Origin: Endomicrobiales bacterium
Lineage (GTDB): Bacteria > Elusimicrobiota > Endomicrobiia > Endomicrobiales > JALOBY01
DNA: 64,000 bases
Assembly (NCBI GenBank): GCA_963796955.1
Contig: CAWCNJ010000008.1
Location: 352,001 to 416,000 of the forward strand
Direction: 5' to 3'
This document shows positions 45,356 through 61,991 of this stretch, piece after piece. The notes beneath the pieces were generated by a model. It was given only the letters and a program-made list of their open reading frames with translations, did no database searches and was not told the origin of the DNA. The number at the start of each line of letters is the position of its first letter. Within the stretch, counting starts at the first letter, position 1. The translations under genes and the position numbers were made by a program.

Positions 45356-45365
45356 GGAACTGGAC

Positions 45366-45707
45366 ATGAAGATAGTAACCGATTCAATCTCTCTCGAAGA
45401 ACTTAAACAAATGGCCGCAGGCTTATTCGGTGACATGGTAAAAGCCGTCGTTGATATTGAACGCAGCGTTATTGCAGTTGACGCCGAACTGCATTCTGAC
45501 CTTGAGGCATTGCTATTAGAAAATGGTTCAAAACAGAAAGATGTGTGGGGTATTAACCTCTATCCTGAACTAAATGGAGAGGATTTTGTTGAATTTTCCT
45601 CTATGATAAATATGCGCCCATCGCAAGACAATATGAGCCGTGGCGTTGATGATGAGAAAACCCGTAAACGCATTGTCGACGTCGTTACAAAAAGGGTGAC
45701 AAAGTGA
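45366..45707 (+). CDS. DUF5674-like protein
   Basis: VKAVVD, H.DLE..LLE.GS.Q..VWG.N.YP, IN.RP motifs; AAGGA RBS. Family recognised from memory. Confidence 0.7.
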   Translation: MKIVTDSISLEELKQMAAGLFGDMVKAVVDIERSVIAVDAELHSDLEALLLENGSKQKDVWGINLYPELNGEDFVEFSSMINMRPSQDNMSRGVDDEKTRKRIVDVVTKRVTK

Positions 45708-46036
45708 CAACCCAACACGCCCAGCTAGCCGAAGGGCGCTGGTTCCAGATGTCATTTTTAGACCAGATGGCGAACATCGGCAGCGAAGTTGAACGCGCCC
45801 TGAACTGGAAAACCAGGAACAACGCTGCATACACGCAAAAAGCCTTTATACGCACACTTGAACTACTAGACCTTACGTTAGAAGATGCAAGAAATAATCG
45901 ACGATTAAAAGAACTTGCCCGCGTCCGAGAAGCCATAGTAGATTATTTCAGCGGTTCCAATGAGTTCGCCTCAACAGAAGTATCATGGAAAAAATACTTC
46001 CTAAACTTCGCCTACGCTGCACGTAAGAACCACTAA
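45704..46036 (+). CDS. Small helical hypothetical protein coupled to the DUF5674-like gene
   Basis: GTGA overlap; RW..MS...QMANIGSEVERA...ELAR.RE...DYF. Confidence 0.75.
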   Translation: MTTQHAQLAEGRWFQMSFLDQMANIGSEVERALNWKTRNNAAYTQKAFIRTLELLDLTLEDARNNRRLKELARVREAIVDYFSGSNEFASTEVSWKKYFLNFAYAARKNH

Positions 46037-46428: not shown

Positions 46429-46457
46429 TTGACACTGAAAACATAATGTACTAGAAT
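46429..46457 (+). promoter_or_regulatory. Sigma70 promoter of the corrinoid operon
   Basis: TTGACA-17 nt-TAGAAT. Confidence 0.8.
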
Positions 46458-46551: not shown

Positions 46552-46673
46552 CGCATCGTGAGGAAGTCCCGTGAAATCCGGGCACTGCCCCGCAACGGTA
46601 ATAGTCGCCAAGGCGACTTAGTCCGGTCTATACGATGCGACGGAATAACTTTCGCGGGAAAGATGAGGTATCC
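46552..46673 (+). ncRNA. Cobalamin riboswitch (compact form)
   Basis: CGCATCGTG/TACGATGCG closing stem; GAGGAAG, GTGAAATCC, CTGCCCCGCAACGGTAA, AGTCCGG core; loop CCCGC complementary to downstream GCGGG hairpin; lies upstream of cob/btu genes. Confidence 0.88.
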
Positions 46674-46686
46674 ACTATTATTTTTC

Positions 46687-46723
46687 AACCCTTGCTTTCT
46701 TCGAAAGCAGGGGTTTTTCTTTT
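46687..46723 (+). terminator. Intrinsic terminator/attenuator of the riboswitch leader
   Basis: AACCCTTGCTTTC-TTC-GAAAGCAGGGGTT followed by TTTCTTTT, just before the GGAGG RBS. Confidence 0.85.
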
Positions 46724-46732
46724 GGAGGTAAA

Positions 46733-47251
46733 ATGCTTTACATCAACACAGGGAACGGGAAGGGGAAGAGTACCGCGGCTATGGGGCAGATGTTGCGCTC
46801 TATCGGGCAGGGGTGGAAGGTTTGCCTGGTGCAGCTTTTTAAGGGGAAGAGCTTTTACGGGGAGCAAAAAACCTTTGGGAAGTTCAAAAAACAGCTTGAT
46901 TTTTACTCTTTTGCCCCCAAACACCCGGGGTGTTTTCCAAAAACTGATAGAAAATTGGTGCGGAAACAGTGTTTGGAGGCTCTTTCGTTTATCCACAAGT
47001 TACTCACAGGCAGAAAACGATACCAATTATTAGTGATGGAAGAGTTCAATATAGCCATCCGGGATGGCTATATGACCACTAAAGAAGTACTTGAAGTAGT
47101 CAACGATTTTTACAGTATATCGGACATTGTAATAACAGGCAGAGGCGCGCCAAAGGCTTTGATCGAACGGGCTGACCTTGTTACCGAGATGAAGGAAATA
47201 AAGCACCCCTTCCGTAAAGGCATAAAATCTCGCAGAGGGATAGAATTTTAA
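46733..47251 (+). CDS. cobO: Cob(I)yrinic acid diamide adenosyltransferase (CobA/CobO/BtuR)
   Basis: TGNGKGKSTAA.G, TGR.AP, ADLVTEM..IKHPF..G....GIEF. Confidence 0.93.
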   Translation: MLYINTGNGKGKSTAAMGQMLRSIGQGWKVCLVQLFKGKSFYGEQKTFGKFKKQLDFYSFAPKHPGCFPKTDRKLVRKQCLEALSFIHKLLTGRKRYQLLVMEEFNIAIRDGYMTTKEVLEVVNDFYSISDIVITGRGAPKALIERADLVTEMKEIKHPFRKGIKSRRGIEF

Positions 47252-47252
47252 C

Positions 47253-47771
47253 ATGGGAACCCTTATTTTCATAACCGGTGGAGCTCGTTCCGGCAAAAGC
47301 AGACTGGCGACAGACCTGGCGGGGCAGGCTGGTAAGCACGTGGCCTTTATTGCCACCGGGCAGGCCCTGGACAAGGAGATGGCGGAGCGCATAAAGAAGC
47401 ACCAAAGCGACCGGCCTGCCGGTTGGAAAACCGTTGAGGAACCCTTAAATATTGCATCGGCTATAGCGAAACTACCGAAAAATACACAGGCAGTGATCAT
47501 CGATTGCCTTACCTTATTGGTAACGAACCTGATGCTTTCAGGAAAAACCGATAAGCAAATTAAAGATGCGATTAAAAACGTTATAACGACAGCGAAGAGT
47601 ATCAAAGCTACCGTGATCGTGGTTTCTAACGAAGTTGGGGCAGGAATTGTGCCAGAGAACAAAATGGCACGGGATTTCAGGGATATAGCAGGGATAGCAA
47701 ATCAAATAGTTGCAAAAGCAAGCGACAAAGCCTACGCAATGTTTGCCGGTTATCCGGTGAAGTTAAAATAA
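47253..47771 (+). CDS. cobU: Adenosylcobinamide kinase/guanylyltransferase
   Basis: GGARSGKS, EM..RI..H...R, SNEVG.G, FRD..G. Confidence 0.96.
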   Translation: MGTLIFITGGARSGKSRLATDLAGQAGKHVAFIATGQALDKEMAERIKKHQSDRPAGWKTVEEPLNIASAIAKLPKNTQAVIIDCLTLLVTNLMLSGKTDKQIKDAIKNVITTAKSIKATVIVVSNEVGAGIVPENKMARDFRDIAGIANQIVAKASDKAYAMFAGYPVKLK

Positions 47772-47784
47772 AGGAGCAACGACC

Positions 47785-48855
47785 ATGACACTTAAAGAAG
47801 CGATCTCAAAGATCACCGACCTGGATGTGACGCTGATGAACAAAGCGCAGGAGAAACTGGATAGCTTAACAAAACCTCAGGGCAGCCTTGGGCGCCTGGA
47901 AGAACTGGCCAAACAGATCGTCGCTATCAGCGGCAATATAAAACCTGAGATAACCAACAAATATATCGTCACAGTTGCTGGCGACCATGGCGTAGCAAAG
48001 GAAGGCGTCAGCGCATTCCCGCAGGAAGTTACACCGCAGATGGTACATAACTTCCTTACCGGCGGGGCCGCTATCAATGTTCTCGCCCGCAACATCGGAG
48101 CGAAAGTTATGGTCGTGGATGCAGGCGTTGCATCAGACATTCCGGCTCACCCCGACCTCCTGATCAGGAAGATCGGTTATGGGACAGCAAACATAGCCAA
48201 AGGTCCCGCGATGAGCAGGGAAGACGCTATTAAGGCTCTTGAAACCGGCATAGAATTAGTCGCCCAGCTTAAGAGCAAAGGTGCGCACATAATAGGAACC
48301 GGTGATATGGGGATAGCCAACACCACTCCCTCCAGCGCGATAGTTGCTGCGATAACGGGCGCGGCAGTGGAGAGCCTTACGGGCAGGGGCACCGGCATTG
48401 ACGATAAGGGCCTTGATTTGAAGATAAGCGTGATAAAAAAAGCTCTCTCGCTTAATGCTCCCGACAAAAACGATGGGATCGATGTGCTCAGCAAAGTCGG
48501 CGGCTTTGAGATCGGCGTTATTGCCGGTATATTTATAGGCGGCGCCGCGAACCGCATTCCCGTAGTTATCGACGGTTTCATTTCCGGCGCAGGCGCGCTC
48601 ATCGCCTCAATTATCGCCCCAAAAGCAAAACAATATATGATCCCTTCGCACTGTTCAGTAGAGGCAGGCCACGCCGTAACACTTACTTTCATGGGTTTAA
48701 AACCTCTATTCAATATGAATATGCGCCTTGGCGAAGGAACCGGTGCCGCTCTTGGGATCCAGTTCGTTGAGGCCTCAGTAAAAATACTGAACGAAATGGC
48801 AACGTTCGCTCAGGCAGGAGTTTCTGAAAAATCGGAAGAATCGAAGGTCAACTAA
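47785..48855 (+). CDS. cobT: Nicotinate-nucleotide:DMB phosphoribosyltransferase
   Basis: TKP.GSLG.LE, GDHG, MGIANTT, RLGEGTG. Confidence 0.97.
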   Translation: MTLKEAISKITDLDVTLMNKAQEKLDSLTKPQGSLGRLEELAKQIVAISGNIKPEITNKYIVTVAGDHGVAKEGVSAFPQEVTPQMVHNFLTGGAAINVLARNIGAKVMVVDAGVASDIPAHPDLLIRKIGYGTANIAKGPAMSREDAIKALETGIELVAQLKSKGAHIIGTGDMGIANTTPSSAIVAAITGAAVESLTGRGTGIDDKGLDLKISVIKKALSLNAPDKNDGIDVLSKVGGFEIGVIAGIFIGGAANRIPVVIDGFISGAGALIASIIAPKAKQYMIPSHCSVEAGHAVTLTFMGLKPLFNMNMRLGEGTGAALGIQFVEASVKILNEMATFAQAGVSEKSEESKVN

Positions 48856-49602
48856 ATGCTCGGATTCCTTACTGCTCTGCAGTTCCTAACGATCATCCCT
48901 TTACGATTATCTCGCGTTCCTGCAAAGCGTGATTTTGCGACTGCTATTGCGACATTTCCTTTAGCGGGAATTTGCATAGGACTGATCGTGCTGTTATCCA
49001 GGGCTGTATTTTCGTACGTACTTTCCGGGACTGCGCTCAGTGTGGTTATGGTGATAACTCTTATGGTAATCACCGGCGGGCTGCATTTGGACGGGCTTGC
49101 AGATACTGCCGACGGGATCGGAGCCCGCGCAGACCGTGAAAGGACGCTTGAGATAATGCGTGACAGCAGGATCGGTACCATGGGCGTTTTGGCGCTGATT
49201 TCTGTCATATTACTGAAGGTCTATCTGTTCGCGTATCTACCGACGCATAGAATGTTTGCGGCTATTGTTTGCACTATGGCGGTAAGCCGCGCATGCCAAC
49301 TGATACCAATGTATTTTTTTCCGTATGCCAGAAGCAGTGGGAAAGCTTCTTCCTTCATTGAAGCGCTTTCAAAACCGGCGGTCTTTGCGGCACTGTGCAT
49401 TTCAGCTATTCTGGCAGGCAGCTTGCTGCATTACGCAGGTATTATCGCACTGTTGGTTACCGGAATCACGGCTTATATAATCAGCCGGGCAGTAAGCAAT
49501 AAACTGGGAGGTATCACCGGTGATGTTATTGGCGCTGTCAGCGAAATATCCGAAATAGTTTTTTTGGTAACGATAATTGCCTTGCAAGGGGTGCCTCTGT
49601 GA
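48856..49602 (+). CDS. cobS: Adenosylcobinamide-GDP ribazoletransferase
   Basis: TGGLHLDGLADT.DG, IMRDSRIG, GGITGDV.GA..E. Confidence 0.96.
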   Translation: MLGFLTALQFLTIIPLRLSRVPAKRDFATAIATFPLAGICIGLIVLLSRAVFSYVLSGTALSVVMVITLMVITGGLHLDGLADTADGIGARADRERTLEIMRDSRIGTMGVLALISVILLKVYLFAYLPTHRMFAAIVCTMAVSRACQLIPMYFFPYARSSGKASSFIEALSKPAVFAALCISAILAGSLLHYAGIIALLVTGITAYIISRAVSNKLGGITGDVIGAVSEISEIVFLVTIIALQGVPL

Positions 49603-50051
49603 ACAAACCCGGTGTATTAAAACAGCTAAAGCCTTTCGGTGTCACGCTTGATGTGCTGGTCGCAACGGGCATGATGATGTACATTTATGACCCGGCGATA
49701 GGCAAGCCGGCCTCTGTCAGAAAGACAGTTGAGAAAGAAACGATAAAAGCGCTTAACGATATTAATATCGCGGCGCTCATAACCGCCGGCGTCGAGCTGG
49801 AAAGGCTTGGCCTGGAAGGCAGGCTGCCAAACATTTCGAAAAAGAAGTTCGAGACCGATCCCGTTGACCTTATCGCTGATGAGATACTCGGGCAGGGCAT
49901 CGCGATGTATCTGGCAGGAACACGGGCGCTCTTTGAGTTCGAACGCCTGGATAAAAAGAAGCCTGGAATAATCGCGAAGCTGCCTCCATTCATGGACGAT
50001 ATTGTGGCAGGATTAATAGCCGGGGTAATGGTAAAAGTATGCTCAAATTGA
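49599..50051 (+). CDS. cobZ: PgpA-fold alpha-ribazole phosphatase (CobZ type)
   Basis: DPV.LIADE..G..IA.Y.AG..A.FEF.R.D.KKPGI...L.PF.DD...GL.AG; directly follows cobS. Confidence 0.8.
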   Translation: MNKPGVLKQLKPFGVTLDVLVATGMMMYIYDPAIGKPASVRKTVEKETIKALNDINIAALITAGVELERLGLEGRLPNISKKKFETDPVDLIADEILGQGIAMYLAGTRALFEFERLDKKKPGIIAKLPPFMDDIVAGLIAGVMVKVCSN

Positions 50052-50887
50052 CAACGTCCGGCGTTCAGCGTTTAGCGTATAGTGTAACTGCCCTACTGCT
50101 GATAATTTCAGGAACTGCATTTGCGTATGAACGGATCATTTCGCTTGCACCGTCTTTGACGCGCGACGTGTATCTGCTTGGGATACAGGACAAACTGGTT
50201 GGCGTCACCATGTATTGCCCGGATTTCGCGAAAGGAAAAGAGAATGTCGGTTCCGTTCAAGCTCCGAATCTGGAACGTATCGCTGCGCTTAAACCCGACG
50301 TTGTGCTTGCCACCAAAGACGGCAACGATCGCCGGACGGTAGACAAGCTGCGGTCGATGGGCATAAACGTGTATGTTTTAGGTTCGCCATCGACGATTGA
50401 TACTATTTGTTCTGAATTCATTGAACTCGGCAAATATCTTGGAGTTGAGGCAACGGCGAAAACGATAGTTAAGCAGGCTCGGGAAAAGATACAGACCGTC
50501 CGTACGCATATACCGGCAAACGGGCAGAAAAAAGTATTCTGGCAGGTAGGCGCTCACCCGATATTCACGGTCAGCAAGAACAGCTTCGTAAATGAATTCA
50601 TGGCGTTGAGCGGGGTCAAAAATGTATTCCAAGATCTGAAAGCCCGTTACCCGCAGATCACCAGGGAAGCCGTTATAGCCGCTGATCCGGACATAATAAT
50701 AATCGTTACCATGGACGGCGAAATGTCCACCGAAAAAGCTAACTGGGCACAGTTCGCTCAGTTAAGCGCCGTAAAGAACAACCGTGTGTTTTTCATACGC
50801 GATATGATGTTCGACAACCCGACACCCCTTGCCCTAGCCGAGGGAATAGAGAAACTCCAAACGATCTTTTATCCGACGACAAAATGA
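50039..50887 (+). CDS. btuF: Cobalamin ABC transporter periplasmic binding protein
   Basis: Signal peptide; RIISLAPS, NLE.I.ALKPD.VL. Confidence 0.88.
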   Translation: MLKLTTSGVQRLAYSVTALLLIISGTAFAYERIISLAPSLTRDVYLLGIQDKLVGVTMYCPDFAKGKENVGSVQAPNLERIAALKPDVVLATKDGNDRRTVDKLRSMGINVYVLGSPSTIDTICSEFIELGKYLGVEATAKTIVKQAREKIQTVRTHIPANGQKKVFWQVGAHPIFTVSKNSFVNEFMALSGVKNVFQDLKARYPQITREAVIAADPDIIIIVTMDGEMSTEKANWAQFAQLSAVKNNRVFFIRDMMFDNPTPLALAEGIEKLQTIFYPTTK

Positions 50888-51879
50888 AACGTAATGTACC
50901 AACCTTCCTGATACTTATATTTGCGCTGCTTTGCAGCGCCATGGCATCGCTGCTTGTAGGGGCGGCGGACATAACGCCCGCGCAGCTTTTTAACGCCCTG
51001 CTGCACCCGCATGCCGGCGGTACCGTTTCAACTATAGTCTGGCACCTGCGTATGACCCGCACCGCAATGGCCATAATAACCGGCATGGGTCTTGCCGGCT
51101 GCGGCTGCGTCTTTCAGGGAGTGCTGCGAAACCCGCTTGCAGACCCGTACACGCTTGGTGTTTCGGGCGGCGCCGCTTTCGGCGCTACCCTGGCTATCGC
51201 TTCCGGTATTGCTGCCATGGGAATGTTTTTCCTGCCTATCGCCGCTTTTGCAGGCGCTCTGTTTTGCGTCAGCCTGGTATATGCCGCGGCATCACGGCGC
51301 GGTTTTTCGCAAAGCTCTTTGATACTCGGGGGTGTAGTGCTTGGCTTTGTGTTTTCCTCCATGGTGCTGCTGGTAATAGCTCTGGCAGACGCGCAAAAAG
51401 TGCAGTCAACGGTTTTGTGGCTTATGGGCGATCTTGCAACGGCGAGCGGTACGATGGTAATGCTAACCGGACTGTGCGTATTTTTCGGAATAGCGGCCTT
51501 ATCATTTTTTGCCAGCGATCTGAACATTCTGACCCTCGGTGAGGAAAAGGCGATGCACCTGGGCCTTGAACCGATGAAACTCAAAAAAGTGCTTTTCGCC
51601 ATAGCTTCGCTGGTGACCGGTGCGGTTGTCGCGGCGACCGGCATAATCGGGTTCGTGGGGCTGATAATACCTCACGCCGTGCGGCGTTTCACCGGTCCTG
51701 ACCACAGGGTATTGATCCCGGCATCTGCACTTGCCGGCGCGGCATTCCTGCTGGTTTGCGACACGATAGCCCGCACTATCATCGCACCTACGGAATTGCC
51801 CGTGGGCGTAATAACAGGGCTTACCGGCGGCATATTCTTTCTGGGATATTTAATGACCTCCCGCAATAAGGTGTTTTAA
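50884..51879 (+). CDS. btuC: Cobalamin ABC transporter permease (FecCD family)
   Basis: RNPLADPY.LG.S.GA, GEE.A..LG, IGFVGL..PH. Confidence 0.9.
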   Translation: MKRNVPTFLILIFALLCSAMASLLVGAADITPAQLFNALLHPHAGGTVSTIVWHLRMTRTAMAIITGMGLAGCGCVFQGVLRNPLADPYTLGVSGGAAFGATLAIASGIAAMGMFFLPIAAFAGALFCVSLVYAAASRRGFSQSSLILGGVVLGFVFSSMVLLVIALADAQKVQSTVLWLMGDLATASGTMVMLTGLCVFFGIAALSFFASDLNILTLGEEKAMHLGLEPMKLKKVLFAIASLVTGAVVAATGIIGFVGLIIPHAVRRFTGPDHRVLIPASALAGAAFLLVCDTIARTIIAPTELPVGVITGLTGGIFFLGYLMTSRNKVF

Positions 51880-51882
51880 CGA

Positions 51883-52695
51883 ATGATACTGGAACTGCGT
51901 AACATAACAGCAGGCTACGGCGGAATAACTGCGCTTAACAATATTAACTGCTCCATAGCAGAGGGTGAGATAACCGGTATTATCGGGCCCAACGGCGCCG
52001 GCAAAACGACCTTGTTCCGCGCTATTACAGGCACGCTCCGCCCGCGCTCGGGAAACGTATATTTTAACGGCATAGACATTCACAGCATCCCGCGCAGGGA
52101 GTTCGCCAGGCAGGTCGCCGCCATGCCGCAGATGCTTGAATCCTTCTTTCCATTTTCTGTTGAAGATTTTGTGGCTATGGGCAGGTTCCCGCACCACTCC
52201 CGTTTTGAGGGAACGACGGCCCAGGACGAACAGGCCACGGAACAAGCCCTTACCGATACCGAAACCGCTTCCTTCAGAACGCGTCAGATGAATGAGCTTT
52301 CCGGCGGGGAACGTCAGCGCGTGATGCTGGCGCAGGCACTGGCTCAATCGCCGAAATTGCTGCTGCTTGACGAACCTACCGCCCACCTGGACATAGGCCA
52401 CCAGGTGCAGATGCTTGAGCTTATCCGTTCGCTTAACCGTGAAAAGGGCATAACCGTCGTGACCGTACTGCATGACCTCACCCTGGCCGGAGAATACTGC
52501 GACCAGCTACTAATGCTGAAGAAAGGCGCTGTGCACGCCCTTGGCATACCAGCCGACGTTCTCACCTATCAAAACATTGAATCCGTCTATAATACTGTCG
52601 TGGTAGTCAAAGAAAATCCGTTCTCGCACAAGCCGTATATTATCGCCGTGCCCGAAGAATACCGGAGCAAAAGGTATAACAATGAAACCCGGTAA
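51883..52695 (+). CDS. btuD: Cobalamin ABC transporter ATPase
   Basis: GPNGAGKT, LSGGE, LLLDEPT, LHDL. Confidence 0.9.
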   Translation: MILELRNITAGYGGITALNNINCSIAEGEITGIIGPNGAGKTTLFRAITGTLRPRSGNVYFNGIDIHSIPRREFARQVAAMPQMLESFFPFSVEDFVAMGRFPHHSRFEGTTAQDEQATEQALTDTETASFRTRQMNELSGGERQRVMLAQALAQSPKLLLLDEPTAHLDIGHQVQMLELIRSLNREKGITVVTVLHDLTLAGEYCDQLLMLKKGAVHALGIPADVLTYQNIESVYNTVVVVKENPFSHKPYIIAVPEEYRSKRYNNETR

Positions 52696-54220
52696 AACGA
52701 TTATGATCCAGGGGACCGGCTCCGGCGTCGGCAAAAGTGTGATCACTTCCGCCCTGTGCCGGATATTCAGACAGGACGGCCATTCGGTCGCGCCTTTTAA
52801 GGCCCAAAACATGGCCTTAAATTCCTTCGTGACCGAGACCGGCGGGGAAATAGGCAGGGCCCAGGCAGTACAGGCGCAGGCCGCAAAAGTTAAGCCTACC
52901 GTTGATATGAACCCTGTTTTAATAAAACCTTCCTCCGACATGATGGCGCAAATAATAGTGCTTGGCAAACCGCTCGGCAACAAATCGGCGGCCGGCTACA
53001 CGAACTACAAAGGCAGGCTTTTTGGTACGGTCAAGAATTCGCTCCGCAATTTACGCAAAGAACACGATATAGTCGTTTTGGAAGGCGCGGGCAGCCCGGC
53101 CGAAGTGAACCTGCGCAAGAACGACATCGTGAACATGAGCATAGCACTGGCCAGCAAAACGCCCGTGATACTTGTAGGCGACATCGACAAGGGCGGCGTG
53201 CTCGCGTCAATAGTCGGCACATTGGACCTGATAAACAAAAAAGAATGCGCTCTTATAAAAGGCTTTATCATCAACAAATTTCGAGGCGATATCAAATTGT
53301 TCAGGGACGGCGTAAGGTTCCTTGAACGGCGTACGGGCAAAAAGGTGCTGGGCGTGATACCGTACTACCGCGAGATAGATATCCCGGAAGAAGATGCCAT
53401 ACCGTGGGAAAAGAAAAACGCCGCAAAAGACGGCAGGCGCGTTGTGAAGATCGCGGTGATCTGCCTTCCGCATTTGTCGAATTTTACGGACTTCGATGTT
53501 CTGGAGCAGGAGCCGGATGTTGAGCTTACCTATGTCAGAAAAGCAGCTGAACTCGGACAACCTGATGCGGTAATAATACCCGGCACAAAAAGTACGATCG
53601 CCGACCTTATGTGGTTGAAGCGGGAAGGCCTGGCCGAAAAAATACAAGTTCTTGCGCAAAACCGCGCCACGGAGGTTATCGGTATCTGCGGCGGTTTTCA
53701 GATGCTGGGGGATGAAATTATCGACAGCAACCGTCTTGAATCTAAGACCGGATCCGCACAAGGGCTTGGTCTTTTACCGGTAAAAACAAAGTTGGAACCC
53801 GCAAAGACATTACGGCAGGTCACGGGCCTGCACATTCCGACAAATACTAAAGTCACAGGATATGAGATCCACCACGGCCTGACAACACGGCACCATGGCT
53901 GCAAACCAGCCTTCAGGCTATCCGGGATACAAACCCTTGACGGCGCGATCAACAAAAACGGTTCTGTATGGGGAACCTACATCCACGGGGTTTTTGATAA
54001 TTTTGCTATGCGCAATTCATTTATCAATACTCTTCGAAAGAAGAGGGGACTCGCACCGCGCTCTGTAAAGGAACGCGACACTGATATTGAATTCGATAAA
54101 CTCGCGGACCATGTGCGGGGGAATATTGATATGAAAGCTTTATATAAGATCGCAGGAGCAGCAATGCCTGCTGGTGTCGGGAAGCTCGTGAGAATAAAAT
54201 CAAGGAGAAATTTAAAATGA
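52682..54220 (+). CDS. cobQ: Cobyric acid synthase
   Basis: QGT.S..GKS, PFKAQNM, EGAGSP.E.NL, SNFTD, GICGG.QMLG, GTY.HG. Confidence 0.97.
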   Translation: MKPGKTIMIQGTGSGVGKSVITSALCRIFRQDGHSVAPFKAQNMALNSFVTETGGEIGRAQAVQAQAAKVKPTVDMNPVLIKPSSDMMAQIIVLGKPLGNKSAAGYTNYKGRLFGTVKNSLRNLRKEHDIVVLEGAGSPAEVNLRKNDIVNMSIALASKTPVILVGDIDKGGVLASIVGTLDLINKKECALIKGFIINKFRGDIKLFRDGVRFLERRTGKKVLGVIPYYREIDIPEEDAIPWEKKNAAKDGRRVVKIAVICLPHLSNFTDFDVLEQEPDVELTYVRKAAELGQPDAVIIPGTKSTIADLMWLKREGLAEKIQVLAQNRATEVIGICGGFQMLGDEIIDSNRLESKTGSAQGLGLLPVKTKLEPAKTLRQVTGLHIPTNTKVTGYEIHHGLTTRHHGCKPAFRLSGIQTLDGAINKNGSVWGTYIHGVFDNFAMRNSFINTLRKKRGLAPRSVKERDTDIEFDKLADHVRGNIDMKALYKIAGAAMPAGVGKLVRIKSRRNLK

Positions 54221-56052
54221 AATTTTTTGCATACATAATGACCGCCTTTGCATTTACCGTATCGGCCTTTGCCGCTGATAGCGGTGTATTCCTCTCGCTA
54301 ACCAGGAAAGCTGAAGATATCGCAAGCCTGCCCACCAATGTTTCAACTATTTCAGGCAGCGATATCGCTGAAAAACACGCCCGAAACCTTGGGGAGGCCC
54401 TTCAGTCTGAATTGGGGTTTAACATCAATCAATATGGCACGCTTGGCTCAAATAGCAATATTACGATAAGGGGATCTAAAACCGAGCAGGTATTGGTGCT
54501 CATTGACGGCCGCCGTATAAATGACATAGCACTTGGCCTTGTGGACCTGAGTTCTATCCCGACAGATAACATTAAGCGCATTGAAGTGATCCGCGGAGCG
54601 GCTTCGGCGATCTACGGAGCCAATGCCTTTGGCGGTGTCATTAACGTAATAACGGAAAAGGCTGATGAGGCAGCGCCGGTCGCAACTCTCGCAGCGCGAT
54701 CAGGATCGTTTGGTGAACAGACATACAGCTCGAAGCTCAATCTGAATAAAAATGAAAGATCGTTACTTGTCACTCTGGAGAAACAGCATCTTGACGGCTG
54801 GAGACAAAACAGCGACTACAATAATATCAATAGTTCGCTACGGCTTGGCCTGAACACATCGCGCTACGGTAATTTCGACTTTTCCAGCCAGATCCTTAAT
54901 AGCGAGCTTGGAATACCGGGCGGAAATTTTTCGGCAGACCCCAATACTTTTACCGACCCGACCGCCGCTTCATCACCCCGGGCTCGCCAGAAAGAGAATA
55001 ACAGATATGCCCGTATGGAAAATACATTTAACACTGGTGAGCACTCCCTGAAAACGTCGATATACGGATCCAATGACTCAAGGGATTACAGCGATCCAGA
55101 CTCTGTATTGGACGCCCGTTACGGCACGATGGTTTTCGGCGGACAGGAGCAATATACAGGACCTTACAACATTACCGCGGGGACCGAATGGTGGGAGGAA
55201 CAATATAAACAGACAGATCTGGAGCTTTCAGAGGTTGTCCTTAATAAGAGCCGCGTGAACACCGACATATTCCTGCAACGGCAAACCTTTGTCGGTAAAT
55301 TCATGTTTTTGCCCGGTCTCCGCTTTGACTCCAACTCGTCATTTGGATCGGAAGCGTGCCCCAGCCTGAGCGTGGTTTATAAACAAAGTGATTCTTTCAA
55401 AATCTCTGCCAATACCGGTAAAGCGTGGCGAGCCCCGACATTCAGCGACCTGTATTTCCCTATGGACGCCTACGGAGACGTTGGCAACCCCGCGCTAAAA
55501 CCGGAGGAAGGTATTTCCAGCGACCTTGGTGTTGAGGTCAAGTCGGGCAAAACCTCTGTTTCCGTAACGGGATTTCGTACCGACAATAGAAATCTTATAA
55601 GCTGGGTGCCGAATTCTACGGGCATGCTTTTCTCTCCGCAAAATATCAATACGAGCCGCAGCTCCGGCATAGAAGCCGGTTTCGATCAAACACTGGCCGC
55701 CGGCCTTGCCCACTCAATTAACTACACATACCTGTGGGCTGAAGACACAGACACAAAACAAGTGCTGATATATTCGCCGTGCAACACGCTTAACTACCAG
55801 ATCAACTGGCTGATGCCGTGCGGCACTCTCCTGGGTATTTCTGCCAAATACGTAAGCCAGCAGATGGCAACCGCGACAACAACCCTGAACGATTACACGA
55901 CCATTGGCGCACAACTTTCGCATAATTTCGAGAATATTGACATTTGGGTCAAGGGGTCGAATTTAACCGACAGAAAATATGTTACCCGCCAATACTACCC
56001 GCTCCCGGGCGCAACCTGGCAGGCAGGAGTCACTTACAAGTTCTGGAACTGA
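54217..56052 (+). CDS. btuB: TonB-dependent receptor (BtuB-like)
   Basis: Signal peptide; plug IRG....VLVLIDG, RIEVIRGA.S..YG..A.GGVIN.IT; RAPTF.DLY, GNP.LKPE; terminal aromatic strand. Confidence 0.85.
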   Translation: MKFFAYIMTAFAFTVSAFAADSGVFLSLTRKAEDIASLPTNVSTISGSDIAEKHARNLGEALQSELGFNINQYGTLGSNSNITIRGSKTEQVLVLIDGRRINDIALGLVDLSSIPTDNIKRIEVIRGAASAIYGANAFGGVINVITEKADEAAPVATLAARSGSFGEQTYSSKLNLNKNERSLLVTLEKQHLDGWRQNSDYNNINSSLRLGLNTSRYGNFDFSSQILNSELGIPGGNFSADPNTFTDPTAASSPRARQKENNRYARMENTFNTGEHSLKTSIYGSNDSRDYSDPDSVLDARYGTMVFGGQEQYTGPYNITAGTEWWEEQYKQTDLELSEVVLNKSRVNTDIFLQRQTFVGKFMFLPGLRFDSNSSFGSEACPSLSVVYKQSDSFKISANTGKAWRAPTFSDLYFPMDAYGDVGNPALKPEEGISSDLGVEVKSGKTSVSVTGFRTDNRNLISWVPNSTGMLFSPQNINTSRSSGIEAGFDQTLAAGLAHSINYTYLWAEDTDTKQVLIYSPCNTLNYQINWLMPCGTLLGISAKYVSQQMATATTTLNDYTTIGAQLSHNFENIDIWVKGSNLTDRKYVTRQYYPLPGATWQAGVTYKFWN

Positions 56053-56068
56053 CAAGGAGGTGGAAATA

Positions 56069-56176
56069 ATGAAAAAAAGTAAAAGTAGCCCTAAGAAAGA
56101 CGTGATTGCATCAAGGAAGAAATGCGTAGCCAAAGGCACCGGACTTTCGCATTACGTTCTTTTGGACAAGAAATAA
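56069..56176 (+). CDS. cbpA: CbpA-like RiPP precursor peptide (35 aa)
   Basis: MKKSKSSPKKDVIASRKKCVAKGTGLSHYVLLDKK; strong AAGGAGGT RBS; the VIA.R..C...GTGLSHY.L motif matches my recollection of CbpA. Confidence 0.85.
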   Translation: MKKSKSSPKKDVIASRKKCVAKGTGLSHYVLLDKK

Positions 56177-56196
56177 TCAACAGAAAAACCTCAATC

Positions 56197-56233
56197 AGCG
56201 GAGAAAGCTATTCTTACAACGGCTTTCTCCGCT
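56197..56233 (+). other. Strong hairpin between precursor and maturase genes
   Basis: AGCGGAGAAAGCT-N11-GGCTTTCTCCGCT with a weak U tail. Confidence 0.7.
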
Positions 56234-56256
56234 TTAGAAAACACAACAAGGAAACA

Positions 56257-57654
56257 ATGAAAAACATTAATAAATTCGCCAACAACGCCTCCTCCAGCGG
56301 CAAATACTTGAACACCGGCAACGGTTCTTCCCTGCAAATAATCGACATAAAACACAAAGAATATATCGGAGTGGTAGCACCTGACACCGCCTTCTGGGCC
56401 CTTGTCAAGAAAGATCAGCTGCACAAAGTATTTGACGATCCCAAATATATTTCCAGCTATTTAAAGAAAAGCGGACAATTCAAAAAGGAAATAGACGATC
56501 TCAGGTTCAACCTGAAACCGTCGGCTGTCTACTTTAACCCGACCGACCGCTGCAACTTGAACTGTTCTTACTGTTATATCCCTGAAAAGCTAAGAAAGAA
56601 TGGCGACAACATGACACCGAAAAGGCTTTTACAGGCACTGGAAATATTGAAAAGATATTTTACCGAAAGCCTCGGAAAAGAACACAGGCCGCAGATAGTC
56701 TTCCATGGCGCGGAACCGATGGTCAACCACGAGGCAATGTTCCCTGCGATCGACAAGTTCGGAGATTATTTCCGTTTCGGCATACAGTCTAATGGTACTC
56801 TGCTTGACGATACTGCGCTGAAATTCCTTACTTCGCGCGGGATCAGCATCGGCCTTTCGCTTGATGGACCCACAGCAGGTATAGCAGACAAGACCCGCAA
56901 AACGTGGGCAGGAAAAGGTGTATCGCACACAACGATCGATCTGATAAAACGTTTAAAAGGCTACCGCAATTATTCAGTTATCTGCACGGTAACCAAAGAA
57001 AATATGCGTTCGCTCAATGAGACGGTTGAATTACTGCATAAATTGGAAGTGCCCACCTGCATGCTTAATCAGGTCCGGTGCACTCTACCCGGCGGGCAAA
57101 AGGCAAAACCCGCGGACGCCGACATGGCAGCCTACTACATGAAGGCGCTTGATCATGCGCATTCACTTTACAAAAAGACGGGAAGAAAAATAGTGGTGGC
57201 TAATTTTGCAAACATCCTGCTTAGCATTCTTGCGCCGAGCGGGCGCAAGCTGATGTGCGACATATCACCTTGCGGCGGCGGGCGCTGTTTTTTTGCTGTT
57301 TCCGCTCAGGGGAATATGTTCCCTTGCAGCGAATTTATAGGCCTGAAAAAATTTCAGGGCGGGAATCTCTTCAAAGATAACATACAAGATGTGCTGAGAT
57401 CAGAACCATTCAAGCTGGTGACCAGACGGAAGGTTGAAGACATTGAACCCTGCGCACATTGTGCTATACGCCATTTTTGCGGCTCACCCTGCCCGGCAGA
57501 GGCCCATGAGATTCATGGATCTATGCAAAAACCAGGAGCCTTCTGCGAACTTTATGAAGAACAGGCACGTTATGCATTCCGCGTTATCGCAGACGGCAAA
57601 GAAGACGCCTACTTATGGGACAACTGGAAAAGCGGCATGACAGAAGCCCTTTAG
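56257..57654 (+). CDS. cbpB: Peptide-modifying radical SAM/SPASM enzyme (CbpB-like)
   Basis: CNLNCSYC, FHGAEP; SPASM-type CGGGRC..PC...CAHC.....CGSPC....C; N-terminal PDTAFW; start ATG 56257 with AAGGA RBS. Confidence 0.88.
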   Translation: MKNINKFANNASSSGKYLNTGNGSSLQIIDIKHKEYIGVVAPDTAFWALVKKDQLHKVFDDPKYISSYLKKSGQFKKEIDDLRFNLKPSAVYFNPTDRCNLNCSYCYIPEKLRKNGDNMTPKRLLQALEILKRYFTESLGKEHRPQIVFHGAEPMVNHEAMFPAIDKFGDYFRFGIQSNGTLLDDTALKFLTSRGISIGLSLDGPTAGIADKTRKTWAGKGVSHTTIDLIKRLKGYRNYSVICTVTKENMRSLNETVELLHKLEVPTCMLNQVRCTLPGGQKAKPADADMAAYYMKALDHAHSLYKKTGRKIVVANFANILLSILAPSGRKLMCDISPCGGGRCFFAVSAQGNMFPCSEFIGLKKFQGGNLFKDNIQDVLRSEPFKLVTRRKVEDIEPCAHCAIRHFCGSPCPAEAHEIHGSMQKPGAFCELYEEQARYAFRVIADGKEDAYLWDNWKSGMTEAL

Positions 57655-57681: not shown

Positions 57682-57710
57682 TTGACATTTAAACGATAAC
57701 CCGTTAGACT
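57682..57710 (+). promoter_or_regulatory. Sigma70 promoter for the FN3/CTD gene
   Basis: TTGACA-17 nt-TAGACT. Confidence 0.65.
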
Positions 57711-57750: not shown

Positions 57751-60700
57751 ATGCGCGTTGATAAATTATTGAAATGTTCGATCGCGTCTCTGACACTCTC
57801 TCTTTTTTCACTGTGTTCAGCCGTGTACGCGGCGCTACCGGTGCCGGAGATAACCGGTGTAGCCCTTTCCACGACTTCTATTCAATGGAATTGGACTGAT
57901 GAATCTGCCGCCTTGGTTGATGGTTACCATCTCTATTCAACGACCGCCCCTACCTTTATAATAATCAATGCAACCTATTACATCGAGACCGGGCTTCGTC
58001 CGAACCAGCAGGTAGACCGTTATGTAACAACATATCTCGGCCCGCAGGAAAGCAATGCCTCTGAGGACGATGCAGTATACAGTTATGCCTTTCCACCAGA
58101 CGGCTTTACAACCGTCTCAACGGTCACGGTTTCGTCGGCATACATAGAATTCAGGTTCTCAAGCGCGACCTCATATGCTCTTGAGATCTCCACTGACAAC
58201 GGAAACACCTACAACTTCTTCCGTCAGATATTTGTACCGTGGCAGACCCTTGCGCCATTGGAATGTAATAAACAATATATGATACGACTTGGCGCCGTTA
58301 ACGGCGACGATGAACAAACGCCTGGAATTTACAGCTCAACATCAGTTTTTATTACACCTCCGCCTGACCCGGTGTTTTTTGCGACCGCGGTCTCTTCCTG
58401 TTCCCTGTGCTGGCAATGGACATCCACCTCGGCCTTTGCCGCCGCCGGGGTTACAGGATATAACCTTTATCATTCTACTACGACCATTGACGGCACTATA
58501 CCTAACGATGGACTGGACGGACAACTTGTTGGCTCGGTGCCGGATGTTTCCATCAGCTCTTATACCATGGTATTTACAGACAGCGTTACGTTCATAAGCG
58601 CCAATTCGCCGCATACTTTCTGGCTTAGAGCTGCAGGCCTTATAGAAAGCGTCGGCAAGAAAGCCGTGACCAGATTCACGTATGCCACCGCTCCCTCTAC
58701 GTGCACGCTTACCGAATATGATTTCCTGCATGTATTTGAAACCGGCATGGACCTGTCTTTTGCGGAAAATGGGCACGCCAGCTCCTACATAGTTGAATAC
58801 TCCACCACCGGCGGTTTTTCCTCCGCGGTTAACAAAAAACCGGCAGGAGGACCGTCCAGTTCGCTATCCCAGCTTACGAATGACACTAAATACGATATCA
58901 GAATAGGGGCTGTCAACGGTGACAACATACAAACCCCGCTTAATGCTGAAAACCCTATGGCATATAGTGCGACTTACAAGGTAGCCACACGGCTGCCCGT
59001 TCCTGATAATCTTCATGCTTCACCCGTGACAGATACCATTATAGACTGGTCCTGGTCTACCGGTACGTATACGAACACCGCCAGCGCGACAGGGTACACT
59101 ATCTATATCTCGTCTTTCTGGGTGCAAATAAACCAAACGGTGCTGCTGCCCGTTGCCCACATCGCCGGTAAAGAGAATAGTTCTTATCAGTTCGGCGCCG
59201 GTCCGGAAGGCCCGCTTATGACCAACAGCGTACATACCAGATATGTAGGCGCGACCCAGTTTTATGCAGGCTACGCATGTTACGGCAGCCTTGCCCCGGC
59301 GACGACAGGATGCACGTTTGCGACCCCGCCTAACGATGTGTTTTTTGATACGGTCACTGCCCGTACCATAAGCTTATGGTGGAAAGAACCGGAGATTCCT
59401 GCGACGATGTACCGCATAGAACGGTCAACGGTCATCGCCGAGTCCGGTCCATGGCTATTTGTTTCGTCCGTCACAGGAACGCGATTCATCGATACCGGAC
59501 TTCAACCGATGACCACATACGCTTATCGCCTTGGAGCCTATAACCAGCTGGGGCAGTTAACAAATGGACTTGCAGCGGCAACAAACAATAATAGAAGGGA
59601 TTACAGCTTTGTAAGCGGAACTGAAACGATTCACGTCGGGCCGCAGTTCTACGGCGTGGCGGTGGGGACATCCAGCATCTGCTGGAACTGGGTTGAAGTA
59701 GTGCCGGGAGTTTTGCGCTACAATATACTTTCTTCAACCAACACCATGTTAAATCCCGGGCTTAGTGTACCAGCTACTTCCTGGATAGAGACGGGTCTCA
59801 ATGGAGCGGATACAGGATTCTCCCGTCGGATACAATCACAAACCGCCTTTGGCTGGGGCGATTATACGGATGCGACCTGCTATACTTTGGCCAATGCACC
59901 GTCAAACCCTGCCACCAGTTCTGTCGGTACCCACTCGCTCACGCTCTCGTGGAACGCCAACGGCAGCACCAGGTTCCTTGTACAACGGTCAACAGATAAT
60001 GCGACATGGGCAATGATCCTTGCCCCAACAGTACTTACGATAGTACCTACGCTAAACGACATTCATTTACACTATCTTACGACGTACTACTATATGATAT
60101 ATGCCTACAATCAGAACTCGATCATGTCACCGGCATCTGTTCTTACTCAAACGATAACTACCGACGTGCCCTCATATGCAACTATTGTGAAACCAGGCTA
60201 TTCAAATGCAATTGACTTGACCGCCTCCCTAACCGGTTTTGGACAAGTGCGCGTTACCATACCTGCAGGGGCAGCGCCTGTTGACGGCTATATTTTCGCG
60301 AATACCGCCGCAGGAACAAATCCAACTGACACTACAACGGGAAATATCAGCATCGCCACAAACAAGCTTAAACCCTCGATCTTATTAGAAAGTTCTATCA
60401 TGGAACTTCACTATTACGATGCCTACGGGTCGACCGTAACGCAAACTTTTAACTCGCCCGTCAGACTATACATGCCGTACCCAGACGTAAACGGCGATGA
60501 TCTGGTCGACAATGTCTTAACCAAAATGCACGCGCATACGCTGCGCATATATACTATGGACACTTTAAACATAACCTGGTCGCTTATGCCGACATCGGTG
60601 GTTGACGTTGCCTCGACAAGGGTCTATGCCGATCTCAATCATTTTTCAATGTACGCACTTGGAAGTCTGATTGCAATGAATTCGAGCGTAAAAGATGCGC

Positions 60701-60990
60701 TGGCCTTCCCAAACCCCTATAAACCGGGGAGTGGCACGCAATTTGACAGTTCAGCCCTCGGCGAAGGTATAGTTTTTCAAGGTCTGACACCGCGCGCCCA
60801 TATCAGGATCTTCAGTATCGCCGGTGATCTAGTCGCTGACTCTCTTATCGAGAGCGACGATGGCCGTTATCTTTGGGACATTCGCAACACACAGGGCGAT
60901 AAAGTCGCATCAGGACTCTATATTTACCTTATTAACAATGCTGACGATCCTTCTGACAAACTGAGCGGCAAACTGGCGGTCATAAAATGA
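57751..60990 (+). CDS. Large secreted FN3-repeat protein with C-terminal FlgD-Ig/T9SS-like sorting domain
   Basis: Signal peptide; four repeated SI.W.W...GY..Y / L....Y..R.GA.N domain pairs; DVNGDD; C-terminal FPNPYKP...IRIFS..G.LV...WD..N..G..VASG.Y.Y...GKLAVIK. Confidence 0.85.
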   Translation: MRVDKLLKCSIASLTLSLFSLCSAVYAALPVPEITGVALSTTSIQWNWTDESAALVDGYHLYSTTAPTFIIINATYYIETGLRPNQQVDRYVTTYLGPQESNASEDDAVYSYAFPPDGFTTVSTVTVSSAYIEFRFSSATSYALEISTDNGNTYNFFRQIFVPWQTLAPLECNKQYMIRLGAVNGDDEQTPGIYSSTSVFITPPPDPVFFATAVSSCSLCWQWTSTSAFAAAGVTGYNLYHSTTTIDGTIPNDGLDGQLVGSVPDVSISSYTMVFTDSVTFISANSPHTFWLRAAGLIESVGKKAVTRFTYATAPSTCTLTEYDFLHVFETGMDLSFAENGHASSYIVEYSTTGGFSSAVNKKPAGGPSSSLSQLTNDTKYDIRIGAVNGDNIQTPLNAENPMAYSATYKVATRLPVPDNLHASPVTDTIIDWSWSTGTYTNTASATGYTIYISSFWVQINQTVLLPVAHIAGKENSSYQFGAGPEGPLMTNSVHTRYVGATQFYAGYACYGSLAPATTGCTFATPPNDVFFDTVTARTISLWWKEPEIPATMYRIERSTVIAESGPWLFVSSVTGTRFIDTGLQPMTTYAYRLGAYNQLGQLTNGLAAATNNNRRDYSFVSGTETIHVGPQFYGVAVGTSSICWNWVEVVPGVLRYNILSSTNTMLNPGLSVPATSWIETGLNGADTGFSRRIQSQTAFGWGDYTDATCYTLANAPSNPATSSVGTHSLTLSWNANGSTRFLVQRSTDNATWAMILAPTVLTIVPTLNDIHLHYLTTYYYMIYAYNQNSIMSPASVLTQTITTDVPSYATIVKPGYSNAIDLTASLTGFGQVRVTIPAGAAPVDGYIFANTAAGTNPTDTTTGNISIATNKLKPSILLESSIMELHYYDAYGSTVTQTFNSPVRLYMPYPDVNGDDLVDNVLTKMHAHTLRIYTMDTLNITWSLMPTSVVDVASTRVYADLNHFSMYALGSLIAMNSSVKDALAFPNPYKPGSGTQFDSSALGEGIVFQGLTPRAHIRIFSIAGDLVADSLIESDDGRYLWDIRNTQGDKVASGLYIYLINNADDPSDKLSGKLAVIK

Positions 60991-61991
60991 AAAAAACCAG
61001 AACGGCGCTTATTATCTGCTTCACTCTTGTTACGGTGCGCAGCGCTTATTGCGTGACAGCGGGGACTTCAGGAGCGGACTTCCTGCGCATAGGTGTCAGC
61101 GCCCGGCCCTCAGCCATGGGGGAAACAGCCGCAACCCTTGACGGCGCAAGCGCCCTGTTCTATAATCCTGCCGGACTTTCAACCGTTGACAACGCCGAAT
61201 TCACGGCGGCTCAGGTTAACTGGATAGAGAACATCAGTTACTCAAATTTCGGGGCCGCTAAAACATTTTCGTTCGGCACGCTGGCCCTGGGCGCGAATTA
61301 CCTCAGTGTCCCGCCGATACAGATGGTGGACAATACCGGTACAAAATTGAACGATAACTACACGGTTAATAATATGTGTCTTACGCTTGGATATGCCAGA
61401 ACGCTGGCGGCCGGTTTACGGGCCGGCGTCACGGCAAGCCGTATAAACAGCTCTATTGCGGATTATTCGGCGACCGCTTTTGCGGCAAGCGCCGGCATGC
61501 AGTATGAGATCTCCAGACCGCTCACCTTGGGCGTTGCGATCCAGAATCTCGGCAGTACCATGAAGTTTAACCAGGAAGGTGACCCGCTACCAACGAATTA
61601 CAAGGCAGGCGCAGCCTATACGATATCTTTTGAAAATGAAGGTGATACCAGGGAAACATCCTTAGCGAATGAGCGCACGCTGACGATAGCCGGCGATGCG
61701 AATATGTCCCGGGAGGTCGGATTGTACGGGAACGCAGGGCTTGAATATTCCATGGTATTCAACGAAGCCATGAAACTGAGCTTACGCGGTGGTTACCGCT
61801 CGGACCTTAACGAAAAAGTGAACGGCTTCTCGCTGGGGCTCGGCACAAACCTCGGCGCTTTCACCGTAGATTATGCTTACTCCGGCCTTGGCGATCTTGG
61901 CATGGCACACCGCCTCACCGTCTCCTATCGAATAGCAACACCCGCCCAGAAAAGCAGGCGTTCCGCCCGGAAAAATAACTACCTGAATTAA
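60987..61991 (+). CDS. PorV/PorQ-family outer-membrane beta-barrel
   Basis: A.FL.IG.SAR..AMGE, YNPAGL, LP...K.G, LRGGY, DYAY...GDLG..HR. Confidence 0.85.
   Translation: MKKTRTALIICFTLVTVRSAYCVTAGTSGADFLRIGVSARPSAMGETAATLDGASALFYNPAGLSTVDNAEFTAAQVNWIENISYSNFGAAKTFSFGTLALGANYLSVPPIQMVDNTGTKLNDNYTVNNMCLTLGYARTLAAGLRAGVTASRINSSIADYSATAFAASAGMQYEISRPLTLGVAIQNLGSTMKFNQEGDPLPTNYKAGAAYTISFENEGDTRETSLANERTLTIAGDANMSREVGLYGNAGLEYSMVFNEAMKLSLRGGYRSDLNEKVNGFSLGLGTNLGAFTVDYAYSGLGDLGMAHRLTVSYRIATPAQKSRRSARKNNYLN

Follow-up and report, generated by a model that had tools for sequence, protein, structure and literature searches.

The 64,000-nucleotide window analysed here, from the genome of an Endomicrobiales bacterium (phylum Elusimicrobiota), carries a 12-gene corrinoid salvage operon at 46733-57654 that is closed by cbpA, encoding a short Lys-rich peptide, and then cbpB, encoding a radical S-adenosylmethionine (SAM) enzyme with a SPASM domain. 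The pair belongs to the curated and already catalogued CbpA/CbpB family (TIGR04164 cobo_pep and TIGR04163 rSAM_cobopep). Both genes are real and conserved and are found together with a corrinoid riboswitch, and in the two phyla searched cbpB occurs only in genomes where cobT occurs. This pattern narrows the question from a general link with B12 or cobalt to the stage at which the lower ligand of cobamides is attached. CbpA and CbpB may act as a cytoplasmic helper of that stage, a cross-linked basic peptide whose His would hold base-less corrinoids, a reading that we hold tentatively and at somewhat less than an even chance. It is favoured because cobT is constant with the pair, the pair is inserted beside cobT or bluB, genes of the late steps lie near it, and its riboswitches mostly have an activating layout.

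The co-occurrence search covered 602 genomes, 301 of the host phylum and 301 of a second phylum around the genome of locus L002, labelled Omnitrophota. In the two phyla cbpB was found in 9 and 22 genomes and cobT in 42 and 92, respectively. All 31 genomes with cbpB possess cobT, and cbpB is absent from all 468 genomes without cobT; the nine host-phylum carriers span seven families. Because kin are not independent, Fisher values were given no weight. As a control, the first 80 of the 209 cobT-less genomes of the second phylum were scanned for cobalamin riboswitches, which 58 of them carry over the gathering score. Thus, B12 use alone does not bring cbpAB. Among the tested genes only cobT is constant with cbpB. 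The ring gene cbiD is present in 9 of the 31 cbpB genomes and missing from 22, this genome included. The 22 second-phylum carriers hold cobQ in 13, cbiB in 16 and a Dph6-like gene in 13 cases, compared with 17, 19 and 38 in 58 of the 70 second-phylum cobT genomes without cbpB. Moreover, cbiD, cobQ, and cbiB are all absent from five cbpB genomes (G331, G490, G504, G527, and G532).

Gene neighbourhoods in relatives also place the pair among the late steps. In the 64 loci whose flanks reach at least 6 kb, near-duplicates included, cobT, cobS, cobU or cobC lies near cbpAB in 33, other late genes in 39, Btu-type genes in 19, ring genes in 10, and cobalt transport genes in 7. The pair is inserted between cobU and cobT (L107, L108), immediately before cobT (L033, L094) or, in G277, immediately after bluB. 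The TonB-dependent receptor, which the first-pass annotation had counted as a part of the cassette, lies directly 5' of the pair in this window, in L013 and in L020. Since this amounts to only 3 of 110 loci, the receptor is not a fixed partner of cbpAB. It is probably the operon's own corrinoid or B12 receptor, which fits the operon context; its best-scoring models are TIGR01779 and PRK10641 (BtuB), the former at 226 bits and far under its cut-off of 599.7.

The peptide is 35 aa long with the core RKKCVAKGTGLSHYVL, and a strong Shine-Dalgarno sequence lies directly 5' of its gene. It scores 48.3 bits on TIGR04164 (cut-off 35) over model positions 1-24 of 25. A matching peptide precedes cbpB in 84 of 90 loci, and the same holds for 19 of 20 further loci (103/110 in total). 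Of the six misses among the 90, three have less than 100 nt upstream, and L014 has 294 nt upstream with no peptide. The remaining two, L018 and L022, are one locus with a frameshifted cbpA, no riboswitch and an intact cbpB behind thiamine genes (L018:9200-9700, G105), possibly a decaying cassette. The one miss among the further loci begins at a contig end. Ala, Arg, two Gly, Leu, and His never vary across the 83 distinct cores; 81 of these contain Cys, and the aromatic residue is Tyr in 81 and Phe in the other 2. G, L, and H belonged to the search motif, and their invariance is partly built in, though nearly all loci matched. The invariant residues are encoded by mixed synonymous codons, such as CAC (44) and CAT (39) for His. 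Because it is conserved upstream of cbpB with varied synonymous codons, cbpA is considered a real and selected gene. In a second clade, at about 41% identity, Ala, the first Gly, and Thr are altered while Arg, Cys, Gly-Leu, His, and the aromatic residue are kept, and the residues conserved across the family are Arg16, Cys19, Gly25, Leu26, His28, and Tyr/Phe29. A thioether from Cys to Gly(i+4) or to Thr(i+5) is weakened as a candidate, as these positions are Ala and Asn in the second clade.

The Cys is missing from 2 of the 83 cores, both in one genus. These CbpA variants (L017:10659-10772 in G200 and L019:10819-10932 in G112) have Cys changed to Ser and Ser to Thr, with the invariant residues of CbpB intact. 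A riboswitch of activating layout heads each cassette, which is inserted with cytochrome genes on one side and moaA/cytochrome oxidase genes on the other. BluB and cbiD are present in both genomes.

The spacer between cbpA and cbpB contains a hairpin (z -6.57, with none of 200 shuffles as stable), and 34 of the 37 spacers of at least 45 nt among the loci fold at -12 or better, a count made without a shuffle control. Such a hairpin probably sets the peptide in excess over the enzyme.

CbpB scores 696 bits on TIGR04163 (cut-off 375) over model positions 1-428 of 428. Its likely start is the ATG at 56257, although the longest open reading frame (ORF) starts at 56122 and encodes 510 aa; the later start is favoured because a ribosome site lies there, the 510-aa frame overlaps cbpA, and the database protein P0001 is equally long. 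A CX3CX2C motif occupies residues 99-106. Eight SPASM cysteines (334, 339, 357, 399, 402, 408, 412, and 430) are kept in 109 or 110 of 110 sequences, and the extra, eighth one, C334, is present in all 110 and aligns with C255 of anSME, a cluster ligand. CteB leaves Aux I open, as described in the available part of PMC6231123. The eighth cysteine leans against a CteB-type thioether without settling the matter, because SkfB does not use such a cysteine, which at this position need not bind a cluster (PMC6231123, same part). [quoted passage not shown] The best non-self model of CbpB is PapB (E 4e-40, 138 against a cut-off of 340), the SCIFF maturase model gives 105.6 against 425, and the best solved relative is 5WGG (E 1.7e-34).

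The closest titled relative belongs to an uncultured Elusimicrobiales bacterium, with 78% identity. The family is widely distributed, with 2525 proteins matching at E 1e-50 or better, not necessarily all of them CbpB. Additionally, a scan of genome contigs with the single protein recovered only 2 loci, a phage collection gave zero matches to CbpB and plasmids gave one, and a cluster look-up for cultured carriers returned metagenome-derived names only.

Riboswitches accompany the pair widely. One lies within 300 nt 5' of cbpA in 51 of the 73 loci with enough sequence, as found with a profile built from Rfam matches in 20 chosen loci, which match by construction. In 35 of the 51 the 3' arm of P13 is also the 5' arm of the terminator, the activating layout, while 13 gave no P13 call and 3 have a separate P13. 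Most switches that directly head the pair thus appear to activate, including one ahead of a cbpA-cbpB-cobT arrangement (L094). A 9-nt loop motif is common to 45 of the 51, and of the six switches without it four head cob or cbi operons. According to the available part of PMC10653944, the cobT switch of Alkalihalobacillus halodurans is activated by cobinamide and its P13 shares bases with the terminator, whereas other cobT switches repress. By folding only, the layout of that switch is the same as that of the 35 relatives. A large set of seemingly activating corrinoid riboswitches is useful in its own right, since that source gave its example as the first known. In several loci (L040, L050, L058, L085, L092, L097, and similar ones) the riboswitch-led cbpAB is divergent from a cobC-cobU-cobT-cobS-cobQ/D-cbiB operon, and back-to-back riboswitches occur in L025, L046, and L085.

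The copy in this window is arranged differently from most riboswitch-led family members, which are stand-alone and of activating layout, as it ends a salvage operon of repress-type layout. The RF01482 aptamer ahead of the operon, at 50.9 bits against a gathering score of 50, is the sole Rfam match in the whole window, with RF00174 reaching 21.8 against 31.5. The P13 loop GCGG is complementary to CCGC of L5. The 3' side of P13 with the next bases (46656-46668) can pair with the 5' arm of the terminator at -11.0 kcal/mol, and this antiterminator pairing appears in prefix folds ending at 46700-46710. P13 stands apart from the terminator, and the shared bases that mark an activating switch are lacking here. 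The layout is probably of the repress-on-ligand type modelled in the available part of PMC10653944, in which the metE switch of Priestia megaterium represses; by folding only, the window's switch has the same layout as that one, with the P13 3' side set against the terminator 5' arm. With such a layout, plentiful cobamide would probably switch the operon off, and read-through across 9.4 kb to cbpA would be expected from the gene spacing. Because the repress layout is found here and the activating one in most riboswitch-led relatives, cbpAB shows, as judged by folding, the same two regulatory signs as cobT. The earlier suggestion that the peptide is made under B12 limitation thus suits this operon and fails as a general trigger.

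The proposed mechanism concerns the last stage of cobamide synthesis, at which cobinamide receives its lower ligand through CobU, CobT, CobS, and CobC/CobZ. CbpA would be produced in excess, and its VIAxRK strand would be bound by the N-terminal domain of CbpB, which would then cross-link the C-x5-GLSH(Y/F) core by radical chemistry, more probably involving the His or aromatic residue than forming a CteB-type thioether. In the most speculative step, the invariant His of the rigid basic peptide would be a stand-in lower axial ligand for cobinamide, its phosphate or its GDP form. Corrinoids held in this way would be reserved for the enzymes of loop assembly and kept from B12 enzymes. The pair would ride on a B12-repressed salvage operon here, and stand-alone copies elsewhere are apparently switched on by corrinoid. 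We infer peptide modification, corrinoid binding, and switch sign from sequence. If the proposal is true, a corrinoid-holding peptide would be a new kind of cofactor chaperone.

Several observations weigh against the helper proposal. The pair is dispensable, as 103 of the 134 cobT genomes lack cbpAB. The genomes are kin and incomplete (G000 is 81% complete), and the genome-level pattern rests on two phyla. Furthermore, the pair is enriched in de novo producers, holding 6 of the 7 cbiD genomes among the 80 compared second-phylum cobT genomes (6/22 against 1/58, with kin among them). It stands right before cbiX/cbiK or cbiM in L023, L028, L062, L044, L054, and L057, which fits a cobalt role, and a copy on a Methylovirgula plasmid has no riboswitch match and no corrinoid gene within 15 kb. 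The activating sign of the switches is read in silico only. In support of the stem that flanks the loop motif, 281 of its 328 cells are paired where 2000 column shuffles give 241 +/- 4, but related sequences inflate this test, which also includes two mis-anchored rows.

The absolute link to cobT, the positions beside cobT or bluB and the activating switches, L094 included, would also suit CbpA as the ribosomal precursor of the lower-ligand base itself. In this fairly unlikely scheme CbpB would cross-link or cleave at the invariant His, possibly with the Leu two before it, and housekeeping proteases would release a base of imidazole type for use by CobT, which would add a third route to those of BluB and Bza. 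BluB is over its cut-off in 4 of the 31 cbpB genomes and not in the other 27, and none of the 31 has a second ThiC-family gene, the two matches of G247 being halves of one gene. Of the seven cbiD genomes mentioned above, six have cbpAB without BluB, and the seventh, G370, has no cbpAB and a bluB in its cobT operon. In addition, 42% of predicted producers are without known lower-ligand genes according to the available part of PMC6461909, and a base precursor, if true, would help to explain part of them; the same source offers purines or scavenged bases as explanations for such genomes. Against the scheme, three of the four BluB carriers are de novo producers, the pair is not accompanied by a second enzyme or protease, and a single enzyme is scant equipment for building an aromatic base. 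A single ThiC-family gene is also found in 56 of the 58 cobT genomes without cbpB, and an apparent exclusion of cbpAB with bza genes was rejected as uninformative for this reason. The full version of this route, with a base that the radical SAM enzyme derives from the peptide's His (perhaps with the nearby Leu) under a cobinamide-activated riboswitch and that is passed to CobT, is improbable.

The Cys and His of CbpA, the cbiX/cbiK or cbiM genes directly after cbpB in six loci and the non-independent cbiD enrichment could instead point to a role inside the cell as a cobalt chaperone or store for the chelatase and the CbiMNQO importer. This is unlikely: the 22 cbpB genomes without cbiD would import cobalt already inserted, a corrinoid-activated switch has the wrong sign, and one Cys with one His is a poor chelator whose Cys is lost in one genus. 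It is distinctly unlikely that CbpA is a small subunit or activator while CbpB acts on the corrinoid or ribazole itself. Some SPASM enzymes do act on tetrapyrroles, as AhbD does in the available part of PMC10452713, no leader cleavage site, protease or exporter was seen, CbpA has two beta-strand-like conserved segments, and the eight SPASM cysteines are as in anSME; the nearest models and structures, however, are the peptide maturases PapB, DynA, and CteB, and the strong intergenic hairpin suggests peptide excess. Least probable by far is an export scheme, in which the product would bind cobalt or corrinoid outside the cell and re-enter through the adjacent receptor and ABC importer. The receptor is directly upstream here, in L013 and in L020, and Btu-type genes are near in 19 of 64 loci, but such adjacency is limited to 3 of 110 loci, the pair is absent from all 468 cobT-less genomes, many of them with B12 riboswitches, and the switches of relatives look activating. 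No protease, peptidase or exporter was found in this operon, among 54 annotated neighbour representatives (of 852 ORFs) or among 31 further proteins, single-locus neighbours being mostly unannotated. The first-pass annotation had likewise seen neither a protease nor an exporter in the cluster; its exported-scavenger and cobalt options are weakened by the absence of cbpB from cobT-less genomes and by the 22 of 31 carriers without cbiD, and the evidence now favours its option of an intracellular chaperone or ligand precursor.

Known systems offer partial parallels. At the level of the CbpA/CbpB family no difference is seen, as both proteins are adjacent and pass the cut-offs near full model length, and RefSeq and GenBank already use these names for relatives. 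The original family paper is said to be that of Haft and Basu from 2011. PqqA/PqqE and MftA/MftC each combine a short conserved peptide with one SPASM enzyme in a cofactor pathway rather than in antibiosis, and they need further dedicated enzymes and proteases. cbpAB is likewise a short conserved peptide with one SPASM enzyme tied to a cofactor, whereas no extra enzymes or proteases travel with it. PapB and CteB (ranthipeptide/SCIFF) share the N-terminal extension, radical SAM core, SPASM domain, and Cys-bearing peptide, while CbpB scores far under their cut-offs and adds an eighth cysteine, and the Cys of CbpA is dispensable in one genus. A literature search, outside which most subscription journals lay, found no study of CbpA/CbpB chemistry, and the available part of PMC13692751 does not discuss the pair.

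The operon runs cobA-cobU-cobT-cobS-cobZ-btuF-btuC-btuD-cobQ-receptor-cbpA-cbpB, with intergenic gaps of at most 16 nt as far as cbpA and 80 nt from cbpA to cbpB. cobU, cobT, cobS, and cobQ exceed their model cut-offs, and the remaining cob, btu, and receptor calls are best matches under cut-off. The first-pass annotation had described, under B12-riboswitch control, a TonB receptor, a Lys-rich 35-aa peptide with the core given above and a SPASM enzyme at the operon end, and had named the CbpA/CbpB families; all of these are present, and the TIGRFAM search that it proposed and the Rfam search agree with it. The features are listed in Table 1.

Table 1. Coordinates of the corrinoid salvage operon and its regulatory elements within the window
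Feature	Position	Strand	Basis
Sigma-70-type promoter-like site, ahead of riboswitch	46429..46457	+	11/12, consensus match only
Cobalamin riboswitch aptamer RF01482, short form; L5 about 46588-46595	46552..46639	+	50.9 bits, gathering 50
P13 hairpin (46649-46662) and alternative antiterminator strand (46656-46668)	46649..46668	+	Folding
Intrinsic terminator, 13 pairs and U tail	46687..46715	+	Expression platform
cobA/btuR-like corrinoid adenosyltransferase	46733..47251	+	Profile match under cut-offs
cobU	47253..47771	+	Above cut-off
cobT, activates lower-ligand base	47785..48855	+	Above cut-off
cobS	48856..49602	+	Above cut-off
cobZ-like alpha-ribazole phosphatase	49599..50051	+	142.7 bits, cut-off 152.5
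btuF-, btuC-, btuD-like ABC importer, three genes	50039..52695	+	B12/corrinoid models top, under cut-offs
cobQ, cobyric acid synthase	52682..54220	+	Above cut-off
TonB-dependent receptor	54217..56052	+	PF07715 (plug) and PF00593 (barrel)
cbpA, Lys-rich precursor peptide	56069..56176	+	35 aa, 16 nt past receptor
Hairpin in cbpA-cbpB spacer	56197..56231	+	-21.3 kcal/mol
cbpB, radical SAM/SPASM enzyme	56257..57654	+	465 aa

In this genome, an 81% complete assembly, searches for cbiA, C, D, E/T, F, G, cbiQ, cbiB, cbiZ, and BluB gave no match, and the lone ThiC-family gene is best called ThiC. The genome encodes 8 B12-binding domains; radical SAM proteins hold 6 of them, and another is part of an 805-aa frame that has a DxHxxG motif. 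TonB and ExbB-family genes are located elsewhere in it. Although neither cbiB nor a ring gene turned up in the assembly, cobQ is kept; the explanation is either a cbiB that was left unassembled or a CobQ that re-amidates corrinoids obtained by scavenging.

An asparagine-synthase-like gene (C-terminal part, about 307 aa) is found in the corrinoid salvage operons of L109, L111, L115, and L119, and also in L016 and L021. The genomes of the first four (G369, G441, G355, and G532) are without cobQ, and the protein may replace CobQ as a corrin amidase. A Dph6-like (PF01902) ATP pyrophosphatase occurs in 51 of the 80 cobT genomes, usually beside cobS/cobT or cbiB in salvage operons and independently of cbpAB. 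The idea that it acts as a diphthamide-like amidase on a modified His was rejected, given 13 of 22 carriers against 38 of 58 non-carriers and no match in this genome. Its identification as CbiR was also wrong, as CbiR is a TIM barrel in the available part of PMC7733943. On the Methylovirgula plasmid a second SPASM maturase (L120:11325-12734; best model TIGR04463, under cut-off) and a pqqA-pqqD-pqqE set also flank cbpAB.

Upstream of the riboswitch, between it and proS, a DUF5674 gene and an overlapping 110-aa ORF, the latter with no Pfam match, lie at 45345-46036. A hairpin follows cbpB, and then a separate promoter-like site at 57682-57710, ahead of two genes at 57751-61991. The first encodes a fibronectin-III protein of 1079 aa, whose C-terminal domain is type IX secretion-like, and the second is of the PorV/PorQ family.

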